A stretch of DNA of 64,000 nt from Bradyrhizobium sp. (GTDB lineage: Bacteria > Pseudomonadota > Alphaproteobacteria > Rhizobiales > Xanthobacteraceae): the NCBI RefSeq assembly GCF_028868675.1, contig NZ_JAGWUA010000002.1, positions 600-64,599 on the forward strand, written 5' to 3'. The position numbers were made by a program, and so were the translations under genes. Positions 22,696 through 29,708 of this stretch are shown here, piece after piece. Positions within the stretch are counted from its first letter, which is position 1, and the number at the start of each line of letters is the position of its first letter. The notes beneath the pieces are model-generated. The model was not told the DNA's origin, searched no databases, and worked only from the letters and a program-made list of their open reading frames with translations.

Positions 22696-23043
22696 ATGGC
22701 CCTGCCGAAGATCAAGATTGTCGACTCGTCCCTCGACGTCGACAAGATGGCCGGCAACGCCCACCTGGCGAGCGAGTTCCTCAAGGCGCTCGCTCACGAA
22801 TCCCGCCTTCTCATCCTCTGCCTGCTGACCGAAGGGGAGAAGACGGTGGGCGAGCTCGAGGAGCTGGTCTCGCGGCGGCAATCCACCGTCTCGCAGCAAC
22901 TGGCGCGGCTGCGGCTCGACGGCCTGGTCTCCGCGCGCCGCGAGGGAACGACGATCTATTACCGTCTCGCCGACGGGAAGGTTCAGGTCGTGCTGGAGGC
23001 GCTCTACAAGGTCTTTTGCGGCAGCCGGGCCGGCCGACGTTAG
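22696..23043 (+). CDS. ArsR/SmtB repressor of SqrR/BigR type (persulfide sensor)
   Basis: FLKALAHESRLLILCLL, SQQLARLR, IYYRL, LYKVFC; one Cys in the helix-2 region and one near the C-terminus. Confidence 0.85.
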   Translation: MALPKIKIVDSSLDVDKMAGNAHLASEFLKALAHESRLLILCLLTEGEKTVGELEELVSRRQSTVSQQLARLRLDGLVSARREGTTIYYRLADGKVQVVLEALYKVFCGSRAGRR

Positions 23044-23098
23044 TCCGGCGCGCGAATTCGCGATCCGCCGCGGACCGGGAGCGGCATGACCCGCCGGA

Positions 23099-23326
23099 TC
23101 AGCCGGTGTGCCGGATCAGGAAGCGATAGACGCCGCCGTCGGCCGCCGATTCTACGAGCTCGTTGCCTGTCGTCTTGCAGAAGGCGGCGAAATCCGCGAC
23201 CGAGCCGGGGTCGGTCGACAGCACCTCGAGCGTGCCGCCCGCCGGAACGTCCTTCAACGTCTTCTTCGCGCGCAAGATCGGGAGCGGGCAGTTGAGACCC
23301 TTTGCGTCGAGTGTCTTGTCGGCCAT
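23099..23326 (-). CDS. tusA: TusA-family sulfur carrier
   Basis: LDAKGLNCPLPIL, TDPGSVADF. Confidence 0.93.
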   Translation of the reverse strand: MADKTLDAKGLNCPLPILRAKKTLKDVPAGGTLEVLSTDPGSVADFAAFCKTTGNELVESAADGGVYRFLIRHTG

Positions 23327-23383
23327 TGGCGGTTCCTGCTGTCGGATCGTCGGATGGTTGAAGGTTGGGCTGGTCGTCGAGCG

Positions 23384-23890
23384 TCAGATGAAGAGGTTGA
23401 TGTCCGATTTCAGCGCTTTCTCCATGTAGGTCGCGGCACCGCCGAGCGAAAGATTGTCGATCATGTCCTCGGTCTTGAACTCGAACAGGTCCATCGTCAT
23501 CTGACAGGCGATCAGCTTGATCTCGGATTCGATCGCGGCCTCCCGCAGCTCCTCGATCGAGGCGACGCCCTTCTTCTTGATCATGTTCTTCATCATCAGC
23601 GAGGCGCCGGCATCGACGCCGGGCAGCATGGCGACGATGTTGGGCATGCCCATGTGCATGCCCATCATCGGCATCTTCATCGCGGGATTGCCGAGCGCCG
23701 AGACCTGCAGATCGAGCTTCTTCTTCAGCAGCGACAGCCCGTAGAACGTGAAGAACATGGTCACATCGACGCCCATGGCGGCGGCCGTCGTGCCGAGGAT
23801 GAAGGGCGGATAGGCCCAGTCGAGCGTGCCCTTGGTGACGATGATCGTCATCGTCTTGGCGTTGGCGCTGCCCATTGCTGCGTCAGACAT
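23384..23890 (-). CDS. dsrE2: DsrE2-family sulfur carrier
   Basis: IIVTKGTLDWAYPPFIL, FFTFYGL, IACQMTMDLF. Confidence 0.9.
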   Translation of the reverse strand: MSDAAMGSANAKTMTIIVTKGTLDWAYPPFILGTTAAAMGVDVTMFFTFYGLSLLKKKLDLQVSALGNPAMKMPMMGMHMGMPNIVAMLPGVDAGASLMMKNMIKKKGVASIEELREAAIESEIKLIACQMTMDLFEFKTEDMIDNLSLGGAATYMEKALKSDINLFI

Positions 23891-23931
23891 TCTATTCTCC
23901 GGATCGTTCGATGGCGGACGTCAAGGGGCGT

Positions 23932-25215
23932 TCAGCCGGTGGAGACCTTCTTCAGCTTGGCGATGCCGAGCATGCCAAGCGCGGCCGTTTCGTAGAACGG
24001 CTCGCTGGAGCCCTTGCGCATCTTGCGCAGGAAGTACTTCTCGAAGCCGATCTTGGCGGCATGGACCCATTTTCCGGACGACGACCAGTTGATGTTGCGC
24101 GGCGGAATCTGGGGCTGGGCGACGAAGGCGATGCCCGAATCGCCGAAGTCGGCGAGACAGACCGCGTTCCATGTGCCCTGGTGGGTCGGTTCCTTGCCGC
24201 GCAGCAACTGGCCGATGTTCATCGCCGTCGCGGTCACCATGGACTCGATCATGAAGCCGGTCTTCGGCACGCCGCACGGCACCGGCGTGGGGCCGACCGG
24301 GGGAATGGCGACGCAGACGCCGACCGAGAAGACGTTCTTGAACTTCGGATTGCGCTGATGCTTGTCGACCAGAACGAACCCGCGCGGGTTGACCAGGCCG
24401 TCGATGCCGCGCAGCGGGGCGATGCCGCGGAACGCCGGCAGCATCATCGAGAAACCGAACGGAATCTCGCTGGTACCCTTGACGGAGCCGTCCTCGGCGA
24501 TCTCCTCGATCGTCATCTTGCCGTCATCGACGCGTTTCACGCGCGAGTTGGTCATCCATTTGATGTGATGCTCGCGCATCTCGCTCTCGAGGATGCCCTT
24601 GGTGTCGCCGACGCCGTCGAGGCCGAGATGGCCCACATACGGCTCCGCCGTCACGAACGTCATCGGGACGCGATCCCTGATCTTGCGGCGACGCAGCTCG
24701 GTGTCGAGGATGAACGTGAATTCGTAGGCGGGCCCGAAGCATGACGCGCCCTGGACCGCGCCGACCACGATGGGTTTCGGGTTGGCGCAGAACGCCTCGA
24801 AATTCGCGGCCGCCTTCTCCGCGTGGTCGATGTGGCAGATGGAATTGGTGAATCCGTTCGGACCCAGGCCCTCGATCTCGTCGAAGGCGAGCTCGGGCCC
24901 GGTTGCGATGACCAGATAGTCGTAGCGCAGCGTCGAGCCGTCCTCGAGCTGGAGCCGGTTCTCGTCCGGCATGACCTTGCTGACCGGAACCGCCTTGAAC
25001 GCGATGCCGCGCCTCGCGAAGGTCGGCGCCAGATCGACCTCGATCGACTCGCGCGTGCGCCAGTTGACCGCGACCCAGGGGTTGGAAGGAACGAAATGAT
25101 AGACGGGATCCTTCGTGACGACCGTGAGCTTGTCCTCCGGTCGCATCTGATCCTTCATCTCGTAAGCCATGATGACGCCGCCAAGCCCCGCGCCCATGAT
25201 GACGATTTCCGCCAC
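23932..25215 (-). CDS. sqr: Sulfide:quinone oxidoreductase (type I/SqrA-like)
   Basis: GAGLGG, FVPSNPW, NSICHIDHA, GASCFGPAYE, GVPKTGFMIESM, VCLADFGD; GTG start with GGAGG RBS. Confidence 0.93.
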   Translation of the reverse strand: MAEIVIMGAGLGGVIMAYEMKDQMRPEDKLTVVTKDPVYHFVPSNPWVAVNWRTRESIEVDLAPTFARRGIAFKAVPVSKVMPDENRLQLEDGSTLRYDYLVIATGPELAFDEIEGLGPNGFTNSICHIDHAEKAAANFEAFCANPKPIVVGAVQGASCFGPAYEFTFILDTELRRRKIRDRVPMTFVTAEPYVGHLGLDGVGDTKGILESEMREHHIKWMTNSRVKRVDDGKMTIEEIAEDGSVKGTSEIPFGFSMMLPAFRGIAPLRGIDGLVNPRGFVLVDKHQRNPKFKNVFSVGVCVAIPPVGPTPVPCGVPKTGFMIESMVTATAMNIGQLLRGKEPTHQGTWNAVCLADFGDSGIAFVAQPQIPPRNINWSSSGKWVHAAKIGFEKYFLRKMRKGSSEPFYETAALGMLGIAKLKKVSTG

Positions 25216-25271
25216 GGCCGTCCCTCCATGTTTGGCAGGCGGGTATGACAACCTCGCCCGTTCTTTATATT

Positions 25272-25287
25272 ATCAGTATATTCGACT
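25272..25287. promoter_or_regulatory. Degenerate SqrR-like operator between sqr and the DsrC paralog
   Basis: ATCAGTATATTCGACT, 11/16 identical to the site upstream of dsrA, within an AT-rich patch. Confidence 0.4.
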
Positions 25288-25349
25288 ATTCAGATTTGTC
25301 TAATCATCTCTGATTGGATTGTCGCGCGCGCAAATGGGAACGATGTGCA

Positions 25350-25658
25350 ATGGCTGGCGAAGTCGATGCGGACGGATATCTCGTTGATCCCGCTGATTGG
25401 ACGGAAGAGTGGGCGATCGCCACTGCGCGCGCCGCGCAGCTCGAGCTGACGCCCGAGCACTGGGCCGCGATCCGCTTCATGCGCGCGTTCCTGGAGCTTC
25501 ATCAGGTCGCTCCCGACGCGCGGTTCGTCATGCGCCATCTGAGCGAGACGAGCGGAGCGCCGCGCAATCGTCTGTTCGAGCTGTTTCCCTACGGCTATCC
25601 CGGCCAGGCCTGCAAGATTGCGGGCATGCGGCGGCCACGCGCCTGGAGCACCGGCTGA
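25350..25658 (+). CDS. DsrC/TusE-family paralog lacking the C-terminal Cys
   Basis: DADGYLVDP..W, LTPEHW, LFPYG..QACKIAGMRRPRAWSTG. Confidence 0.85.
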   Translation: MAGEVDADGYLVDPADWTEEWAIATARAAQLELTPEHWAAIRFMRAFLELHQVAPDARFVMRHLSETSGAPRNRLFELFPYGYPGQACKIAGMRRPRAWSTG

Positions 25659-25683: not shown

Positions 25684-25896
25684 TCAGGTCTTGGTCTGCG
25701 CAGCCGCCCAGTCGCCCATCGATCGCGCCCAGCGTGCGGCCGTTGGCGCGTCGAGTTCGAGAATGGTGTAGCGGCTGCCTTCGCGGATGGTGACGCGCAG
25801 GAGCCGCATGCCGCTCTCGAAGTCGACCTCCGCGAGCCAGATCTCACGGCCGTAGGGTGCCGCAATGGTGTCGATCCGCGTGTTCGCCGTCGTCAT
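25684..25896 (-). CDS. Small hypothetical protein (70 aa)
   Basis: PYGREIWL.EVDFESGMRLLRVTIREGSRYTILELD; 4-bp overlap with the upstream ORF. Confidence 0.7.
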   Translation of the reverse strand: MTTANTRIDTIAAPYGREIWLAEVDFESGMRLLRVTIREGSRYTILELDAPTAARWARSMGDWAAAQTKT

Positions 25897-26093
25897 TTTG
25901 CGGTCCGCTCTCCGCGATAGAAGGCAAGCTCGAGGATAGCCTCCCATTTGCGCGGTGTGTCCGGAAACTCTGGCTTGATATCGAAGTAGAGATGGATCTC
26001 GCCGCGGCGCGCGGCCTGCACCACGAGATCCTCGAGCTGGTCGAACGTCGTAATGTCCGGGTGGGCGATGAGGAGATCGCTGATCTGGGCCAT
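25893..26093 (-). CDS. Small hypothetical protein (66 aa)
   Basis: ISDLLIAHPDITTFDQL...DIKPEFPDTPRKWE; operonic behind the TauD-like gene. Confidence 0.7.
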   Translation of the reverse strand: MAQISDLLIAHPDITTFDQLEDLVVQAARRGEIHLYFDIKPEFPDTPRKWEAILELAFYRGERTAK

Positions 26094-26100
26094 TGCTGTC

Positions 26101-27033
26101 TCAATCCTCCGATCGGCCGATGCGGCCATGGTAGCGAATTCTGTAGAGCAGGCGGCCGCCGGTCGCGGCGGAGCGGAAGGCGCTCCGGTCGTGCAGGACG
26201 TTGTTGCAGATCAATCCCTGGCCCGGCGACATCCTGGTGCGCAGCACGAGGGGATCGGTGCCCAGGATCCGCTCGAGCGCGGCGACGGCCCTTCTGGTCG
26301 GCTCGTCGTTGCGCCACACGATGTTGCGCTTGCGGGCCGTGTAGCGCATGCCGAGCGTGCCGCCGGGCTGCACGAAGAACACCGGCCCAACATTGACCGG
26401 CCGGATGGTACCGTTTGCCTCGGCATTCTCCGGAATGCTCATGGCGGACGAATGCATCAGCGCGACGATATGCGCCGGGTCCTCGTCGCGCAGCCTGATA
26501 TAGGCGATCTCGGGGTCGAGCAGCCGGTTTTCTCCGCCGTGCTCGGCGCCTTGCGCGCAATGCAGCAGCATCGCCTGCACCGAACGGCCGGCACCGTGAA
26601 AGTTGTAATAGCCGTCGGTGTGCCAGGCGATGGCCCGATCTGTGTAGGGAATATAGCCGTAGCGTTCGCCGCCCTGGACCGCCTCGATGCGCACGACGCC
26701 GTCGGCCTCGGCCGATCGATGATCCTCGATCGCGCGCAGGCCGAAGGTCGCGCCGAACGAAAGCAGGCTCGCTCGCACCGACGCTTCGTCGTCGTCGATG
26801 TGGCCGAATGCATAGACGGCCATGTTGGCCCGATCGCAAGAAGCTGCGATTGCGTCGCGTTCTCTCGTGCTCACGCGCCGCGGGTCACGGATCTCGACGG
26901 CGATGTCTTCGACCCGCGCGGGATACCGGAGGAGCTTGATGTCGCGCCATCGCCGGTAACTGCTGTCGTCCGCGAGATTCAACGGGCCCGCATGCGTCTG
27001 GAATTCTTCTTCCGATTCTGCGGCCGCAGCCAT
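26101..27033 (-). CDS. TauD/TfdA-like Fe(II)/2-oxoglutarate oxygenase
   Basis: WHTDGYYN (HxD), LLHC, NNVLHDR, RLLYRIRY. Confidence 0.85.
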   Translation of the reverse strand: MAAAAESEEEFQTHAGPLNLADDSSYRRWRDIKLLRYPARVEDIAVEIRDPRRVSTRERDAIAASCDRANMAVYAFGHIDDDEASVRASLLSFGATFGLRAIEDHRSAEADGVVRIEAVQGGERYGYIPYTDRAIAWHTDGYYNFHGAGRSVQAMLLHCAQGAEHGGENRLLDPEIAYIRLRDEDPAHIVALMHSSAMSIPENAEANGTIRPVNVGPVFFVQPGGTLGMRYTARKRNIVWRNDEPTRRAVAALERILGTDPLVLRTRMSPGQGLICNNVLHDRSAFRSAATGGRLLYRIRYHGRIGRSED

Positions 27034-27070
27034 GCCTTGTGTCCTCGCTCGCGCCGAAGTCAGTTGATTG

Positions 27071-27110
27071 CTTGACCGCGGTTGCGAGTCATGTATTCTA
27101 ATATTCGAAT
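27071..27110 (+). promoter_or_regulatory. Putative dsrA sigma70 promoter with overlapping SqrR-type operator
   Basis: CTTGAC(27071)-N17-TATTCT; ATTC-TAATATTC-GAAT at 27095-27110. Confidence 0.7.
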
Positions 27111-27229
27111 TTAGTGGTATTCTGACTCAGCCACGCGAAAAAGCAAACGGCCGAGTGCGCGAGAGCGAAAGTCTCCGCGGGTCGGCAGGGAATGGAAACG
27201 GTCGCCGCGCAACAGCGGGAGGGCAGTCT

Positions 27230-28540
27230 ATGTCCGACGAAGACAAACACGGCCAGGCATCTTCCGGCGAACCGCCGGCAGCGCGTCATTCGACGCCGAT
27301 GCTGGATCAGCTCGAAGCGGGGCCGTGGCCGAGTTTCGTCACCGGGCTGAAGCGGCTGCGCGACGCCGGCGACAAGGCGTATGCGCCGATGATGAACGAC
27401 CTGCTCGGCCAGCTCGAACATTCCTACGAGAACCGGACCGGCTACTGGAAGGGCGGCACCGTCTCGGTGTTCGGCTATGGAGGCGGCGTCATTCCCCGCT
27501 TCTCGGAAGTCGCCGACAAATTCCCGCAATCGAAGGAGTTCCATACGCTGCGTGTGCAGCCGCCCGCCGGCTATCACTACACGACCGACCTGCTGCGTCA
27601 GCTCTGCGACATCTGGGAGAAGTACGGCTCGGGGCTGATCGCCCTGCACGGCCAGAGCGGCGACATCATGTTCCAGGGCTGCTCGACGGAGAACGTCCAG
27701 AAGGCGTTCGACGAGTTCAACGAGATCGGCTTCGATCTCGGCGGCGCCGGTCCGGCGTTGCGGACCTCGACGAGCTGCGTCGGCCACGCGCGATGCGAGA
27801 AGTCCTGCTACGACGAGGTGAGGGCGCACCGTTCCGTCATCAACGAATTCCTCGACGAGATGCATCGGCCGGCGCTGCCGTATAAATTCAAATTCAAGTT
27901 CTCCGGCTGCGGCAACGACTGCGTCAACGCCATCCATCGCGCCGACTTCGCCGTGATCGGCACCTGGCGCGACGACATGAAGGTCGACCAGGAAGAAGTG
28001 AAGAAATACGTCGCCAAGGCAGGCCGCAAATACACCATCGACCACGTCATCGCGATGTGTCCGACGCGCGCCCTGAGCCTGAACGACGACGACACGCTGG
28101 ATGTCGACAACAAGTCGTGTGTGCGCTGCATGCACTGCCTGAACGTCATGAACAAGGCGCTTTCGCCCGGCGACGACCGCGGCGCGTCGATCCTGATCGG
28201 CGGCAAGCGCTCGCTCAAGATCGGCGATCTCATGGGCACGATGATCGTGCCGTTCATCAAGCTCGAGACCGACGAGGACTATCAGAGGCTGATCGAGTTC
28301 GGGCGCCGGCTGATCGACTTCTTCGCCGAGAACGCGCTCGAGCACGAACGCATCGGCGAGACCATGGATCGCATCGGGCTGCCTGCGTTCCTCGAAGCGA
28401 TCGGCGTCGACCCCGATCCCAACATGGTGAACCATCCGCGGACCTCGTCGTTCGTCCGCACCGACGACTTCACCGTCGAGGCCGAGAAGTATTTCGAACG
28501 CAAGGCCCGCGAGGCGGGCCTCAACGTCGCCGCGGACTGA
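27230..28540 (+). CDS. dsrA: Dissimilatory sulfite reductase alpha subunit (oxidative type)
   Basis: GPWPSFVTGLK, YWKGG, CVGHARCE, FKFKFSGCGNDC, CVRCMHC. Confidence 0.98.
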   Translation: MSDEDKHGQASSGEPPAARHSTPMLDQLEAGPWPSFVTGLKRLRDAGDKAYAPMMNDLLGQLEHSYENRTGYWKGGTVSVFGYGGGVIPRFSEVADKFPQSKEFHTLRVQPPAGYHYTTDLLRQLCDIWEKYGSGLIALHGQSGDIMFQGCSTENVQKAFDEFNEIGFDLGGAGPALRTSTSCVGHARCEKSCYDEVRAHRSVINEFLDEMHRPALPYKFKFKFSGCGNDCVNAIHRADFAVIGTWRDDMKVDQEEVKKYVAKAGRKYTIDHVIAMCPTRALSLNDDDTLDVDNKSCVRCMHCLNVMNKALSPGDDRGASILIGGKRSLKIGDLMGTMIVPFIKLETDEDYQRLIEFGRRLIDFFAENALEHERIGETMDRIGLPAFLEAIGVDPDPNMVNHPRTSSFVRTDDFTVEAEKYFERKAREAGLNVAAD

Positions 28541-28628
28541 TCGCGCCGGGTATTGGCTCCGCGGCCGGACCGGACCGGCCGCGGACGCCACCCGACAACG
28601 GGAAGGGATCGTGAGGAGTGTCGCCAAC

Positions 28629-29708
28629 ATGAACAGCACCGTTCAGCCGCGCCGTCCCGTCGAGACGGGGGTGCCGGATCCGTTCCCCTACATGCATCCG
28701 CTCATGCGCAAGAACTACGGCGCCTGGGCTTGGCACGATCGCCTGCGCCCCGGCGTGCTCCACCACGTCGCCAAGAGCGGCGACCAGATCTGGACGGTGC
28801 GTGCCGGCACCCAGCGCCAGATGGACGTGTTTACGATCCGCAAGCTCTGCGACATCGGCGACAAATATGCGGAAGGCCACGTCCGCTTCACGACGCGCAG
28901 CAACATCGAGTTCATGGTGAGTTCGGTCGACAAGGTGCAGCCCCTGATCGATGCGCTGAACGCGGCCGGCTTTCCGGTGGGCGGTACGGGCAACTCCGTC
29001 TCGATGATCTCGCATACGCAGGGCTGGCTGCACTGCGACATTCCGGGCACCGACGCCTCCGGCGTCGTCAAGAGCCTGATGGACATGATGCATCACGAGT
29101 TCACGCACGAGGAGATGCCGAACCGGGTGCGCATCACCACGTCGTGCTGCCAGATCAACTGCGGCGGCCAGGGCGACATCTCGATCAACGTCCAGTACAC
29201 CAAGCCGCCGAAGATCAATCACGATCTCGTCTCGAAGGTCTGCGAGCGCCCCGCGGTGGTGGCGCGATGCCCGGTGGCGGCGATTCGTCCGGCGCTGGTC
29301 GACGGCAAGCCGTCGCTCGAAGTCGACGAGAAGAAATGCGTCTGCTGCGGTGCCTGCTATCCGCCGTGCCCGCCGATGCAGATCAACGGCGCCGACTCCA
29401 CCAAGATCGCGGTGTGGGTGGGCGGCAAGCATTCCAACGCCCGCTCCAAGCCGACGTTCCACAAGCTCGTCGTCGCCAACCTGCCGAACAATCCGCCCCG
29501 CTGGCCGGAGGTCACGGAAGTCGTTCGCAAGATTCTCTATGCCTACAAGGAGAATGGCCGCGATTTCGAGCGCCTCGGCGAGTGGATCGAGAGGATCGGC
29601 TGGCCGCGGTTCTTCGAGCTGACGGGCTTTGCCTTCACCAAGCACCACCTCGATACGTGGACTGGTGCTCGAAAAACCATGAACATGTCGGCACACGTGC
29701 ACTTCTGA
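28629..29708 (+). CDS. dsrB: Dissimilatory sulfite reductase beta subunit
   Basis: HTQGWLHCD, TSCCQINCGG, CVCCGAC, NNPPRWPE, ERLGEWIERIGW. Confidence 0.98.
   Translation: MNSTVQPRRPVETGVPDPFPYMHPLMRKNYGAWAWHDRLRPGVLHHVAKSGDQIWTVRAGTQRQMDVFTIRKLCDIGDKYAEGHVRFTTRSNIEFMVSSVDKVQPLIDALNAAGFPVGGTGNSVSMISHTQGWLHCDIPGTDASGVVKSLMDMMHHEFTHEEMPNRVRITTSCCQINCGGQGDISINVQYTKPPKINHDLVSKVCERPAVVARCPVAAIRPALVDGKPSLEVDEKKCVCCGACYPPCPPMQINGADSTKIAVWVGGKHSNARSKPTFHKLVVANLPNNPPRWPEVTEVVRKILYAYKENGRDFERLGEWIERIGWPRFFELTGFAFTKHHLDTWTGARKTMNMSAHVHF

Follow-up and report, generated by a model that had tools for sequence, protein, structure and literature searches.

The TauD-like gene that faces dsrA in the window (the whole 64,000-nt stretch of Bradyrhizobium sp. 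DNA analysed here) is part of the dsrQ operon, which accompanies oxidative-type (reverse) dsr clusters as an accessory unit. This large gene is already known, having carried the name dsrQ since 2012. What is new are the two small genes that follow it, here called geneB and geneC, which encode real, undescribed proteins found almost only beside dsrAB of the sulfur-oxidising type. We consider it fairly probable that the locus, as dsrQ, is functionally tied to rDsr, that it depends on O2 and 2-oxoglutarate (2OG), and that it is not a taurine dioxygenase.

Three co-directional genes, dsrQ, geneB, and geneC, lie on the minus strand head-to-head with dsrA (Table 1). The dsrQ stop codon (26101-26103) is separated from the geneB start by a 7-nt gap, and the geneC ATG overlaps the geneB TGA by 4 bp (ATGA). 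These two junctions, the coordinates of the operon, its divergence from dsrA, and the length of the intergenic region are all as an earlier note on this DNA had described them. Across loci, the dsrQ-geneB gap is mostly 1-22 nt, and the geneB-geneC overlap of -4 recurs in 70 of about 101 loci. The single strand, the short or overlapping junctions, and the conserved order thus mark dsrQ-geneB-geneC as an operon. A scan of the window also placed a terminator-like site within dsrQ (26401-26381), which is probably due to chance. GC3 is 0.81, 0.76, and 0.85 for the three operon genes, in a genome of 66% GC; together with the Pfam matches, the hundreds of homologues, and the AlphaFold pLDDT values, this indicates that dsrQ, geneB, and geneC are real genes and not chance ORFs. 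The existing annotation of dsrQ in the window is truncated. DNA sequencing runs containing this stretch are soil, wetland, and wastewater metagenomes, and no RNA sequencing run containing it was found.

Table 1. Features of the dsrQ locus and its surroundings, in window coordinates
Feature	Position	Strand	Basis or detail
ArsR-type regulator	22696-23043		
Second, weaker operator-like copy, TATTCGACTATTCAGAT	25279-25295	+	one mismatch to core
DsrC-like protein without penultimate CysA, C-terminus ...QACKIAGMRRPRAWSTG	25350-25658	+	PF04358, E 1.8e-25
geneC, 70-aa DUF6967 protein	25684-25896	-	PF22295
geneB, 66-aa acidic protein	25893-26093	-	ATG at 26093, GGAGGA before start
dsrQ, 310-aa TauD/TfdA-fold Fe(II)/2-oxoglutarate oxygenase	26101-27033	-	PF02668; GAGGA precedes start
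H281 codon, distal iron ligand (NNVLHDR motif)	26191-26193	-	alignment of homologues
H138-T139-D140 codons, proximal part of iron-binding triad (WHTDGYYN motif)	26614-26622	-	H138 26620-26622, D140 26614-26616
Divergent intergenic region dsrQ/dsrA, 196 nt	27034-27229	.	dsrA ATG at 27230
Predicted sigma-70-like dsrA promoter, TTGACC, 16-nt spacer, TATTCT	27072-27099	+	consensus scan
AT-rich operator-like element, 27 nt, TATTCTAATATTCGAATTTAGTGGTAT (TATTC-N3-TATTC, partial palindrome)	27094-27120	+	conservation
dsrA, oxidative type, first gene of dsrABEFHC...	27230-28540	+	TIGR02064, E 1.7e-174
dsrB	28611-29708	+	3' of dsrA, followed by dsrEFHC

The earlier note had assigned the large gene to the TauD-fold Fe(II)/2OG oxygenases, and this assignment was correct: DsrQ matches PF02668 over residues 89-299 (score 64.9 bits, cut-off 27; E 1.4e-17). 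It is 66% identical over 93% length to MHY1_00078 (P0021) of Methylovirgula thiovorans HY1, which is named 'TauD/DsrQ' in that strain (PMC9371685). The gene order in this cultured strain is identical to that of the window, including the same operon. According to PMC7596348 and PMC9371685, the name dsrQ was given by Lenk et al. 2012 (ISME J 6:2178), and, in the account of Löffler et al. 2020 (PMC7596348), it denotes a tauD-like gene divergent from dsr clusters. Later citations are those of Löffler 2020 and Gwak 2022 (PMC7596348, PMC9371685). The window's large gene is tauD-like and lies 196 nt from an oxidative-type dsrA, in divergent orientation. Between it and the DsrQ of Lenk 2012 we see no difference, both being the same divergent TauD-fold gene with the same flanks in HY1. 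Describing the operon as uncharacterised is correct as regards function, but its large gene had been named before.

The HxD...H facial triad noted earlier is conserved among 24 homologues, in which H138 and H281 are invariant and D140 is present in 23, the remaining one having Glu. R283, R298, and R300 are also invariant in this set. R294 (H281+13), at least 90% conserved, is a likely candidate for the 2OG-binding Arg by BBOX numbering. In an alignment with TmpA (6npb), H281 falls on the distal His motif, and the GG-x-N-x3-D and V-L-H-x-R motifs of DsrQ fall on their counterparts. DsrQ is an intact member of the TauD/TfdA fold and forms a separate subfamily, closest to hydroxylases of the TmpA/BBOX/TMLH type. 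With E. coli TauD (EC 1.14.11.17) it shares PF02668, the iron triad, and probably the 2OG-dependent hydroxylation chemistry, but it has no equivalog-level or PDB sequence match to TauD. No TauD model is among its NCBIfam hits at E <= 0.01, and a profile search of the PDB recovered TmpA and one 'predicted hydroxylase' but neither TauD nor AtsK. In further contrast to TauD, DsrQ lacks a tauABC context; sitting with dissimilatory genes, it is by context not a sulfur-starvation gene. The TmpA/BBOX/TMLH clade provides its best yet weak relatives (NCBIfam 24-51 bits; PDB 6npb, E 3e-5), and the motifs Y-T-x5-H-T-D, GG-x-(N/S)-x3-D, and V-L-H-x-R are common to both. However, DsrQ scores far below the family cut-offs (35, 35, and 24 bits against the BBOX, TMLH, and TmpA models, with cut-offs of 400, 268, and 415), is about 60 residues shorter, and has its own conserved N-terminal segment (Y26, W29, R30, Y37, P38). 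DUF971 is the N-terminal zinc domain of this clade, and Pfam gave no match to it in the N-terminal region of DsrQ.

In the mechanical ORF list, geneB appears as a version of 78 aa with its start at 26129. We place the start at 26093 (66 aa) because homologues are mostly 66-67 aa long and M1 is invariant. The protein carries the motif D-x-K-P-(E/D)-(Y/F)-x-D-T-P-x-x-W, and 100 homologues were found. Its family is tiny, comprising 104 clusters in 1.84 billion representative proteins, all of them small and stand-alone; the exhaustive profile search of this set yielded no informative domain architecture, and neither Pfam nor NCBIfam has a model for it. An AlphaFold model (mean pLDDT 89.6) consists of three helices, and Foldseek found no PDB match for this fold (best E 2.3). 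NCBI calls some 66-aa homologues of geneB 'sulfur relay protein DsrC', a misnomer. The identification of geneB as DsrC/TusE was rejected, as neither PF04358 nor TIGR03342 hits it even at E <= 10, hhalign against a DsrC alignment gives a probability of 0.7%, and the protein, having no Cys, lacks the Cys-containing C-terminal arm.

The geneC product matches PF22295 (DUF6967) over nearly its full length (90.4 bits, cut-off 27, E 6.7e-26), a family with no mention in the literature searched. Its AlphaFold model (mean pLDDT 93.6) has a ββββα fold, and its best Foldseek matches are to PUR repeat III (5fgo_E and 8chw_B; probability 0.99, E 0.23, TM 0.57-0.60). The predicted topology, four antiparallel strands and a C-terminal helix, is like that of PUR repeats (Pur-alpha, Borrelia Pur-alpha) and of Whirly/PC4-like units, but the identity is 8% and no PUR signature is apparent by sequence. 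In addition, it takes two paired PUR repeats to make a nucleic-acid-binding domain, and here the partner of DUF6967 would be either the unrelated, helical geneB or a second DUF6967. The ββββα unit is a simple fold, which weakens the likeness to PUR. Cysteines number zero in geneB and zero in geneC, and a phosphopantetheine-type motif is absent from both. That geneB or DUF6967 might be a diverged form of the 198-aa unknown of these neighbourhoods, of a Cas6-like protein, or of each other was rejected (hhalign <=5%). Three homologues that resemble Rosetta-stone fusions, P0101 (PF02668 + PF22295), P0348, and P0417, were rejected as such: all three contain the same out-of-frame peptide across geneB and are therefore frameshifted read-throughs.

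We counted the linkage of dsrQ over its 80 best genomic homologues. In 55 of these 80 loci, a divergent dsrA lies within 3.6 kb (at 199-640 bp or 2.2-3.6 kb), which bears out the earlier note's statement that similar genes, with no assigned function, are found near dsrAB in other sulfur oxidisers. All 55 are of the oxidative type and span Alpha-, Beta-, and Gammaproteobacteria, and the host taxa named among the 80 loci all belong to sulfur-oxidiser lineages. Profiling against oxidative and reductive dsrAB, which the note had suggested, gave a clear outcome: every linked locus has an rDsrA that shares 60-95% identity with that of the window (72-92% for loci anchored on DUF6967), and dsrEFH comes after dsrA wherever the locus extends far enough. 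The neighbourhood retains its set of genes while their order is shuffled: dsrQ, geneB, DUF6967, a Cas6/Cmx6-like gene, a CysA-less DsrC, TusA, and the 198-aa unknown. Linkage thus persists across three classes at 45-80% protein identity despite the reshuffling, which argues for selection for linkage and not for one inherited block. A protein of the Cas6 family, an RNA-binding family, is a companion in sister architectures, and CysA-less DsrC paralogues accompany dsrQ in all three architectures. Sulfonate-transport or catabolic genes (tauABC, xsc, suyAB) were found in none of the loci whose neighbours were read or scanned, the remaining loci having been scanned only for conserved sulfur-trafficking and small-protein companions.

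Although the three genes form one operon in the window, as the earlier note proposed, they are not an obligate unit, since dsrQ and the small pair each occur separately. Whenever geneB is present in a dsrQ-anchored locus it lies immediately 3' of dsrQ (32/32). Yet dsrA is divergent in 46 of the 49 informative DUF6967 loci, and 15 of those 46 have no dsrQ. Because the geneB-DUF6967 pair is head-to-head with dsrA in these 15 dsrQ-less loci, we take it to be tied to dsrAB and not to consist of DsrQ subunits. Conversely, dsrQ occurs without the small genes in at least 11 stand-alone loci, in unrelated contexts in Chromatiaceae, Sedimenticola, Thiotrichaceae, and Sulfuricella, as well as in Beta and Gamma variants. 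Beta-type loci have DUF6967 without geneB, and Gamma-type loci have geneB without DUF6967. The small proteins, which lack cysteine and are co-translated as a pair, are thus anchored in the genome on dsrA and not on dsrQ. Neither the two small genes nor their presence as a pair at dsrA without dsrQ is described in the dsrQ literature consulted.

The operator-like element at 27094-27120 is the only conserved block of the intergenic region among nine aligned alphaproteobacterial loci, and lies about 120-136 nt upstream of the dsrA ATG. It is unique in the window (0 expected), and each of 28 related loci has a single copy, in every case upstream of dsrA. The loci whose gene coordinates were compared, some of them without dsrQ, have it in the space that separates dsrA from the divergent gene, and its spacing is fixed relative to dsrA, not to dsrQ. 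Of the promoter region and operator that dsrQ was earlier said to share with dsrA, the conserved element in the 196-nt region stands, but its spacing tracks dsrA alone. A promoter scan found three sites in this region (0.4 expected), and the -10 hexamer of the predicted dsrA promoter overlaps the element. At up to one mismatch, the operator core has four matches in the window against 0.07 expected. One of these, the weaker copy in Table 1, is located in the promoter region from which sqr and the DsrC-like gene diverge, where promoter-like sites occur on both strands (25245-25302). This copy upstream of sqr was rejected as a conserved regulon signal because, beyond the window, only L014 of 13 related loci has it. 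The DsrC-like gene is itself convergent with geneC, with 25 nt between their stop codons, and its HY1 orthologue is described as a probable RspA-type regulator (PMC9371685). For binding to the conserved element, the ArsR-type regulator in Table 1 is a more obvious candidate than the geneB/DUF6967 pair.

In PMC7596348 and PMC9371685, the sole role given for DsrQ, a speculative one, is the release of sulfite from sulfonates. DsrQ would then work like TauD, hydroxylating the carbon next to the sulfonate and releasing sulfite into the sulfur pathway. This is the only function proposed in that literature, it accords with the TauD/TfdA fold, and sulfite is the product of rDsrAB, making a metabolic link conceivable. 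We nevertheless regard it as improbable, and among the functions suggested in the earlier note it is the least supported by context, tauABC, xsc, and suyAB being absent from the neighbourhoods that were read or scanned. DsrQ has no taurine dioxygenase equivalog match, and its PDB profile search leads to TmpA and not to TauD or AtsK. The nearest characterised relatives, TmpA, TMLH, and BBOX, all far below cut-off, hydroxylate trimethylammonium compounds. Sulfite release would also leave the small pair unexplained.

The small pair would be accounted for if its members were subunits, carriers, or peptide substrates of an obligate three-part DsrQ enzyme. Some TauD-fold hydroxylases do act on carrier-bound substrates, and the tight spacing, the translational coupling in the window, and the constant position of geneB after dsrQ all point in this direction. 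Such an enzyme seems to us quite improbable, however, in view of the 15 loci in which the pair faces dsrA with no dsrQ, the Beta- and Gamma-type loci that lack one or the other small gene, the solitary dsrQ copies, the lack of Cys or a phosphopantetheine-type motif, and the out-of-frame nature of the apparent fusions. Finally, dsrQ and the small genes could merely hitch-hike beside dsrA on an island that spreads horizontally, with no role in sulfur oxidation. It is true that dsr clusters move horizontally as blocks, that stand-alone dsrQ copies exist, and that no phenotype has been reported, but we hold hitch-hiking to be very improbable, as linkage is kept in three classes despite the reshuffled order, the named hosts are all of sulfur-oxidiser lineages, the geneB family is tiny, and DUF6967 loci are almost all dsr-linked.

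We infer instead that the operon assists or regulates the rDsr pathway as a module that depends on O2. With O2 and 2OG, DsrQ would hydroxylate a substrate found specifically in the cytoplasmic machinery of sulfur oxidation, for example a protein of the TusA/DsrC type, the DsrC paralogue without CysA, or a metabolite or cofactor of the pathway, and would not be a scavenger of taurine-like sulfonates. The geneB and DUF6967 proteins would assemble into a 1:1 complex and act on dsrAB. Finding an O2-dependent enzyme next to rDsr had been called unexpected, which it is not. Our tentative preference is for an oxygen-responsive control module, in which a PUR-like DUF6967/geneB pair may bind nucleic acid of the dsr promoter or leader, and DsrQ may supply the O2 input by hydroxylating a protein partner. 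The divergent operon adjoining a conserved operator-like element, the PUR-like fold of DUF6967, and the Cas6-family and CysA-less DsrC companions lean toward regulation.

As the next most likely, though somewhat doubtful, possibility, the pair could be an effector like DsrD, or a maturation factor, and bind directly to rDsrAB, with DsrQ modifying a Dsr protein or cofactor. DsrD provides a precedent: this small winged-helix protein, for years regarded as DNA-binding, allosterically activates DsrAB (PMC8794893). The likeness is one of functional analogy: DsrD and geneB/DUF6967 are small, cysteine-poor, and encoded beside dsrAB, with a fold that suggests nucleic-acid binding in DsrD and may do so in DUF6967. 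However, there is no homology (no DsrD Pfam match) and the fold is different, and DsrD belongs to reductive-type clusters, after dsrB, whereas the geneB/DUF6967 pair belongs to oxidative-type clusters, divergent from dsrA. For DsrQ itself, the stand-alone copies in unrelated contexts fit a free-standing small-molecule metabolic enzyme better than a dedicated sensor. Any two of geneB, DUF6967, and a Cas6/Cmx6-family protein occur together, and on this basis geneB/DUF6967 could be an oxidative-Dsr-specific module that is swappable with Cas6/Cmx6 in other lineages and acts as either a nucleic-acid-binding promoter/leader switch or a DsrD counterpart, with DsrQ feeding in the O2 signal, a view we rate as rather unlikely. 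DsrQ might there relay O2 availability by hydroxylating a protein partner, by analogy with the HIF hydroxylases.

The dsrAB genes are the central marker of dissimilatory sulfur metabolism, and the oxidative or reductive direction is inferred from accessory genes, dsrEFH and dsrL on the one hand and dsrD on the other. The geneB and DUF6967 genes, confined to oxidative-type clusters in the dsr-linked loci examined, are extra markers that could improve genome-based typing. They are also cheap and tractable targets, at 66 and 70 aa, with confident folds and an operon that HY1, a strain in culture, has as well. Should the module turn out to be ordinary (for example, dispensable), the sole gain would be a corrected annotation, of the truncated dsrQ call and of the 'DsrC' misnaming. 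The presence of dsrQ beside oxidative clusters of sulfur oxidisers that live exposed to oxygen has been a puzzle since 2012; an O2/2OG-dependent step or an O2 sensor wired to rDsr would, if true, change the view of oxic and microoxic sulfur oxidation.

The three-gene operon comprising dsrQ, which encodes a TauD/TfdA-fold protein, and two small genes, geneB and geneC, is transcribed away from dsrA, with 196 nt between the divergent dsrQ and dsrA start codons (dsrA start at 27230). The dsrQ stop codon is followed 7 nt later by the geneB ATG, and the geneC ATG overlaps the geneB TGA (ATGA). On re-reading the sequence, the figures given in an earlier note for the trio, its gaps and the intergenic length were all correct. 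Chance alone yields long ORFs in every frame of a genome with 66% GC, and separate proof of coding was therefore needed for the trio. Third-position GC is 0.81, 0.76 and 0.85 for dsrQ, geneB and geneC, respectively, and their products have more than 4,110, 100 and 147 homologues. Pfam assigns the dsrQ product to PF02668 (E 1e-17) and the geneC product to PF22295/DUF6967 (E 7e-26), and AlphaFold models the geneB and geneC proteins with mean pLDDT of 89.6 and 93.6. The recorded protein for dsrQ (P0002) has 240 aa and starts at an internal Met71, but the N-terminal 70 residues are conserved among 24 diverse homologues (Y26, W29, R30, Y37, P38), and together with the homologues this shows that the 310-aa form is correct.

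Features of the dsrQ locus and of related loci (positions in the window unless a homologous locus, L033, is named)
Feature	Position	Strand	Remarks
ArsR-type regulator, divergent from tusA-dsrE2-sqr operon	22696-25251		Block recurs in many alphaproteobacterial loci
Second TATTC-N3-TATTC copy, 1 mismatch	25279-25295		Divergent promoter region, sqr / DsrC-like gene
DsrC-like gene	25350-25658	+	Without penultimate CysA, inner Cys kept (QACKIAG); convergent with geneC
geneC (DUF6967)	25684-25896	-	70 aa
geneB	25893-26093	-	66 aa; ATG at 26093, GGAGGA box in front
dsrQ	26101-27033	-	310 aa
Conserved operator-like block	27094-27120		Alignment of nine alphaproteobacterial loci
Cas6/Cmx6-family gene	L033:7909-8547		Also e.g. 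L023, L026, L058, L080
198-aa unknown protein	L033:9401-9997		31 loci

Lenk et al. (2012), as relayed in Löffler et al. (2020; PMC7596348), drew attention to a tauD-like gene divergent from dsr clusters, and in Hausmann et al. (2018) the entry reads ‘DsrQ/DsrU (unknown functions)’. Gwak et al. (2022; PMC9371685) labelled MHY1_00078 of the cultured strain Methylovirgula thiovorans HY1 ‘TauD/DsrQ’. This protein (P0021) is 66% identical to the window protein, and in HY1 dsrA lies divergent from dsrQ, a 66-aa gene and DUF6967, followed by a convergent DsrC-like gene and, further on, dsrE2, tusA and an ArsR-type gene. The window TauD-like gene is dsrQ; similar genes do occur near dsrAB in other sulfur oxidisers, as the earlier note had stated, but the large gene already had a name and is a further member of a known, functionally uncharacterised kind. 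Its place beside rdsrA will not surprise a specialist in dissimilatory sulfur metabolism. The literature searched mentions neither DUF6967 nor the conserved small pair and its independence of dsrQ, nor the operator-like element or the three interchangeable architectures described below; these are an incremental rather than a categorical advance.

The HxD...H facial triad claimed for DsrQ was confirmed as H138-T-D140 and H281; across 24 diverse homologues both histidines are invariant, and a single sequence has Glu in place of D140. R294, 13 residues beyond the distal His, is presumably the 2OG-binding Arg, judging from BBOX numbering. DsrQ thus appears to keep the residues that catalysis by an Fe(II)/2OG oxygenase requires, and looks catalytically competent and dependent on O2 and 2OG. 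Though within PF02668, it matches no NCBIfam equivalog model; its best relatives, TmpA, trimethyllysine hydroxylase and gamma-butyrobetaine hydroxylase, are weak (24-51 bits against cut-offs of 268-415), and a PDB profile search matched only TmpA 6npb (E 3e-5) and 7n7v. With that clade it shares the motifs Y-T-x5-(W)H-T-D, GG-x-N-x3-D and V-L-H-x-R, and by its sequence DsrQ is evidently not a taurine dioxygenase.

A scan with a DsrQ profile, one genome per species, gave at least 600 pattern matches, 598 of which encode a relative; the best 80 loci were kept, and their neighbours were found by tblastn with the window proteins. Among these best 80 of at least 598 relatives, dsrA lies upstream on the opposite strand in 55, at 199-640 bp in 32 and at 2.2-3.6 kb in 23. 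The other 25 comprise 14 with too little upstream sequence for a call and 11 with no dsrA despite at least 3.6 kb upstream of dsrQ (Chromatiaceae, Halochromatium, Thiohalocapsa, Sedimenticola, Thiotrichaceae, Sulfuricella, Rhodobium and two Gammaproteobacteria MAGs). About 83% of the informative loci among the best 80 are therefore dsr-adjacent, a different picture from homologues widespread without dsr, which the earlier note had named as evidence against the link. That note had also proposed profiling against dsr type: the linked DsrA is in every case 60-95% identical to that of the window, with dsrEFH next wherever the locus extends that far, so that, as judged from these sequences, the linked clusters among the best 80 loci are of oxidative type only. 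Hosts include Rhodomicrobium, Gallionella, Sideroxydans, Sulfuricella, Halothiobacillus and Ectothiorhodospiraceae, among others, and we take nearly all names resolved below class level to be sulfur-oxidiser lineages.

Seven of the dsrA-less loci were inspected, and in six the small pair is missing and dsrQ stands alone amid unrelated genes. Such stand-alone copies in several Gammaproteobacteria argue that DsrQ can function in the absence of the pair, with a small molecule perhaps as its substrate. In L040:7654-12460 (Thiotrichaceae label) and L078:7894-11613 (uncultured Gammaproteobacteria), a stand-alone dsrQ is flanked on one side by U32 peptidase-family genes (two in L040, one checked in L078) and on the other by an SCP2 gene, both families confirmed by Pfam. 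We take this set to be UbiU/UbiV/UbiT of O2-independent ubiquinone hydroxylation; an O2-dependent hydroxylase in its midst may be a lead connected with oxygen.

Metagenome contigs were scanned independently, with DUF6967 as the anchor (loci L081-L160). dsrA is divergent in 46 of the 49 loci with enough flank, and dsrQ is present in 31 of these 46. In 15 of the 46, geneB-DUF6967 is directly head-to-head with dsrA; these loci have no dsrQ match, and the gap, by matched stretches about 125 to 725 bp, is too short for dsrQ. Since the pair occurs without dsrQ and dsrQ without the pair, an obligate three-subunit enzyme is ruled out. Measured from the geneB stop, the geneC start lies at -4 in 70 of about 101 loci and at -8 in another 12; this retained overlap indicates conserved translational coupling and argues for a stoichiometric pair. 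The small pair thus appears to be co-translated and has dsrA rather than dsrQ as its genomic anchor, and dsrQ, geneB and DUF6967 are all tied to oxidative-type dsr clusters. DUF6967 without dsrA within 4-6 kb is rare (L096:5866-6324, L105:4066-4266); in L096, which may be a rearranged region, it lies between sqr plus a 302-aa HEAT-repeat-like ORF and a 984-aa SNF2-type helicase-like ORF (both judged by eye). In metagenome contig L143:575-2546, dsrE abuts a short dsrQ fragment followed by geneB and DUF6967, with dsrAB and most of dsrQ missing, which reflects either a deletion in nature or an error of assembly.

The geneB protein is acidic (pI 4.9), with three helices in the AlphaFold model, and matched no Pfam or NCBIfam model and no fold in the PDB; a search of 1.84 billion representative proteins yielded only 104 clusters of its family. 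NCBI names 66-aa cysteine-free homologues (P0253, P0258, P0286, P0307, P0323) ‘sulfur relay protein DsrC’, which is wrong: hhalign against a DsrC alignment gave 0.7% probability, and no model supports the name. DUF6967 is predicted to form a ββββα unit with a conserved hairpin, L-R-x-x-I-R-E-G-x-R-x-T. Structurally, Pur-alpha PUR repeat III (probability 0.99, E 0.23, TM 0.57-0.60), Borrelia Pur-alpha and a PC4-like ssDNA binder match it best; these weak matches to a predicted model are suggestive of nucleic-acid binding. TusA, DsrE and DsrC carry sulfur on a Cys persulfide, whereas both small proteins lack cysteine and so cannot.

In the window, dsrA is followed by dsrB, dsrEFH and dsrC, and the cluster is of oxidative (reverse) type. 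Beyond the trio come the convergent DsrC-like gene, whose stop codon is 25 nt from that of geneC with no terminator predicted between, an SQR-like flavoprotein gene (Pfam match only to the general family Pyr_redox_2), dsrE2, tusA and the divergent ArsR-type regulator. In this cluster the regulator is likely the sulfur-responsive one, and the tusA-dsrE2-sqr operon the module for sulfur delivery. The window DNA was found in soil, wetland and wastewater metagenomes, its closest relatives being Bradyrhizobium-like and other Hyphomicrobiales MAGs. This Alpha type runs from dsrA through divergent dsrQ-geneB-DUF6967 to convergent CysA-less DsrC, sqr, dsrE2 and tusA. In the Beta type (Gallionella, Sideroxydans, Burkholderiaceae), dsrA is divergent from DUF6967, a Cas6/Cmx6-like gene, a Cys-less DsrC, TusA(-TusA), the gene for a 198-aa protein and, last, dsrQ. 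In the Gamma type it is divergent from dsrQ, geneB, the Cas6-like gene, Cys-less DsrC and the 198-aa protein gene, which here ends the operon. The 198-aa protein, whose gene directly precedes dsrQ in Beta-type loci, is conserved, matched nothing in Pfam or NCBIfam and is another unnamed dsr-linked family. The Cas6/Cmx6-family gene (PF09559, E 2e-53; TIGR02807, 144 bits against an equivalog cut-off of 98.85) is missing from the window and sits in the dsrA-divergent operon of 29 of the best 80 loci, of Beta or Gamma type, with DUF6967 or geneB on one side and Cys-less DsrC on the other. All three architectures include a CysA-less or Cys-less DsrC paralogue along with dsrQ, and across them any two of geneB, DUF6967 and the Cas6-like gene co-occur. 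Order is reshuffled and membership kept across classes, a pattern that usually marks genes linked by function and not simply inherited together.

When the intergenic regions of nine alphaproteobacterial loci were aligned, one conserved block stood out, consensus CTATTCTCATATTCGAATTTTCTGTTATTATG, which is unique within the window (0 expected) and overlaps the -10 box of the predicted dsrA promoter (TTGACC, 16-nt spacer, TATTCT). Each of 28 loci has precisely one copy of the 17-nt core of this block, upstream of dsrA wherever coordinates were compared; in the loci measured, the core is about 110-135 nt away from the dsrA start codon. The core keeps this place even where geneB is the divergent gene; thus a conserved operator-like element exists, as claimed, but it is positioned relative to dsrA. 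The operator-like motif has four matches in the window against 0.07 expected. The second copy suggests that the dsr and sqr-dsrE2-tusA operons share a regulator, but a copy lies upstream of sqr in only one of 13 related loci checked (L014). The ArsR-type regulator is the obvious candidate binder of the putative operator, with the small pair or the DsrC-like protein as alternatives.

What might the operon do? We infer that DsrQ is an O2- and 2OG-dependent hydroxylase whose target is specific to the cytoplasmic sulfur-oxidation system, and that the small pair acts at the dsrAB level. Sulfite release from sulfonates is the sole functional idea offered for dsrQ (Löffler et al., 2020; PMC7596348), but desulfonation by DsrQ finds no support in sequence or context, and we consider it improbable. 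We tentatively favour oxygen-responsive control, which is possible given the divergent position, the PUR-like fold of DUF6967, the Cas6-family and RspA-like companions in sister architectures, and the restriction of dsrQ to oxygen-exposed sulfur oxidisers reported by Lenk et al. (2012). The pair would bind the dsr promoter or leader, and DsrQ would supply the O2 input by hydroxylating a protein partner, for example the CysA-less DsrC. Nearly as likely, the pair could act on rDsrAB as a DsrD-like effector or as a maturation factor. DsrD is a warning here: a protein with a ‘DNA-binding’ fold encoded beside dsrAB can be an allosteric activator (PMC8794893). That the operon provides an rDsr-specific, O2-responsive switch or a counterpart of DsrD is rather doubtful, and well worth testing, because a cultured strain has the same operon.
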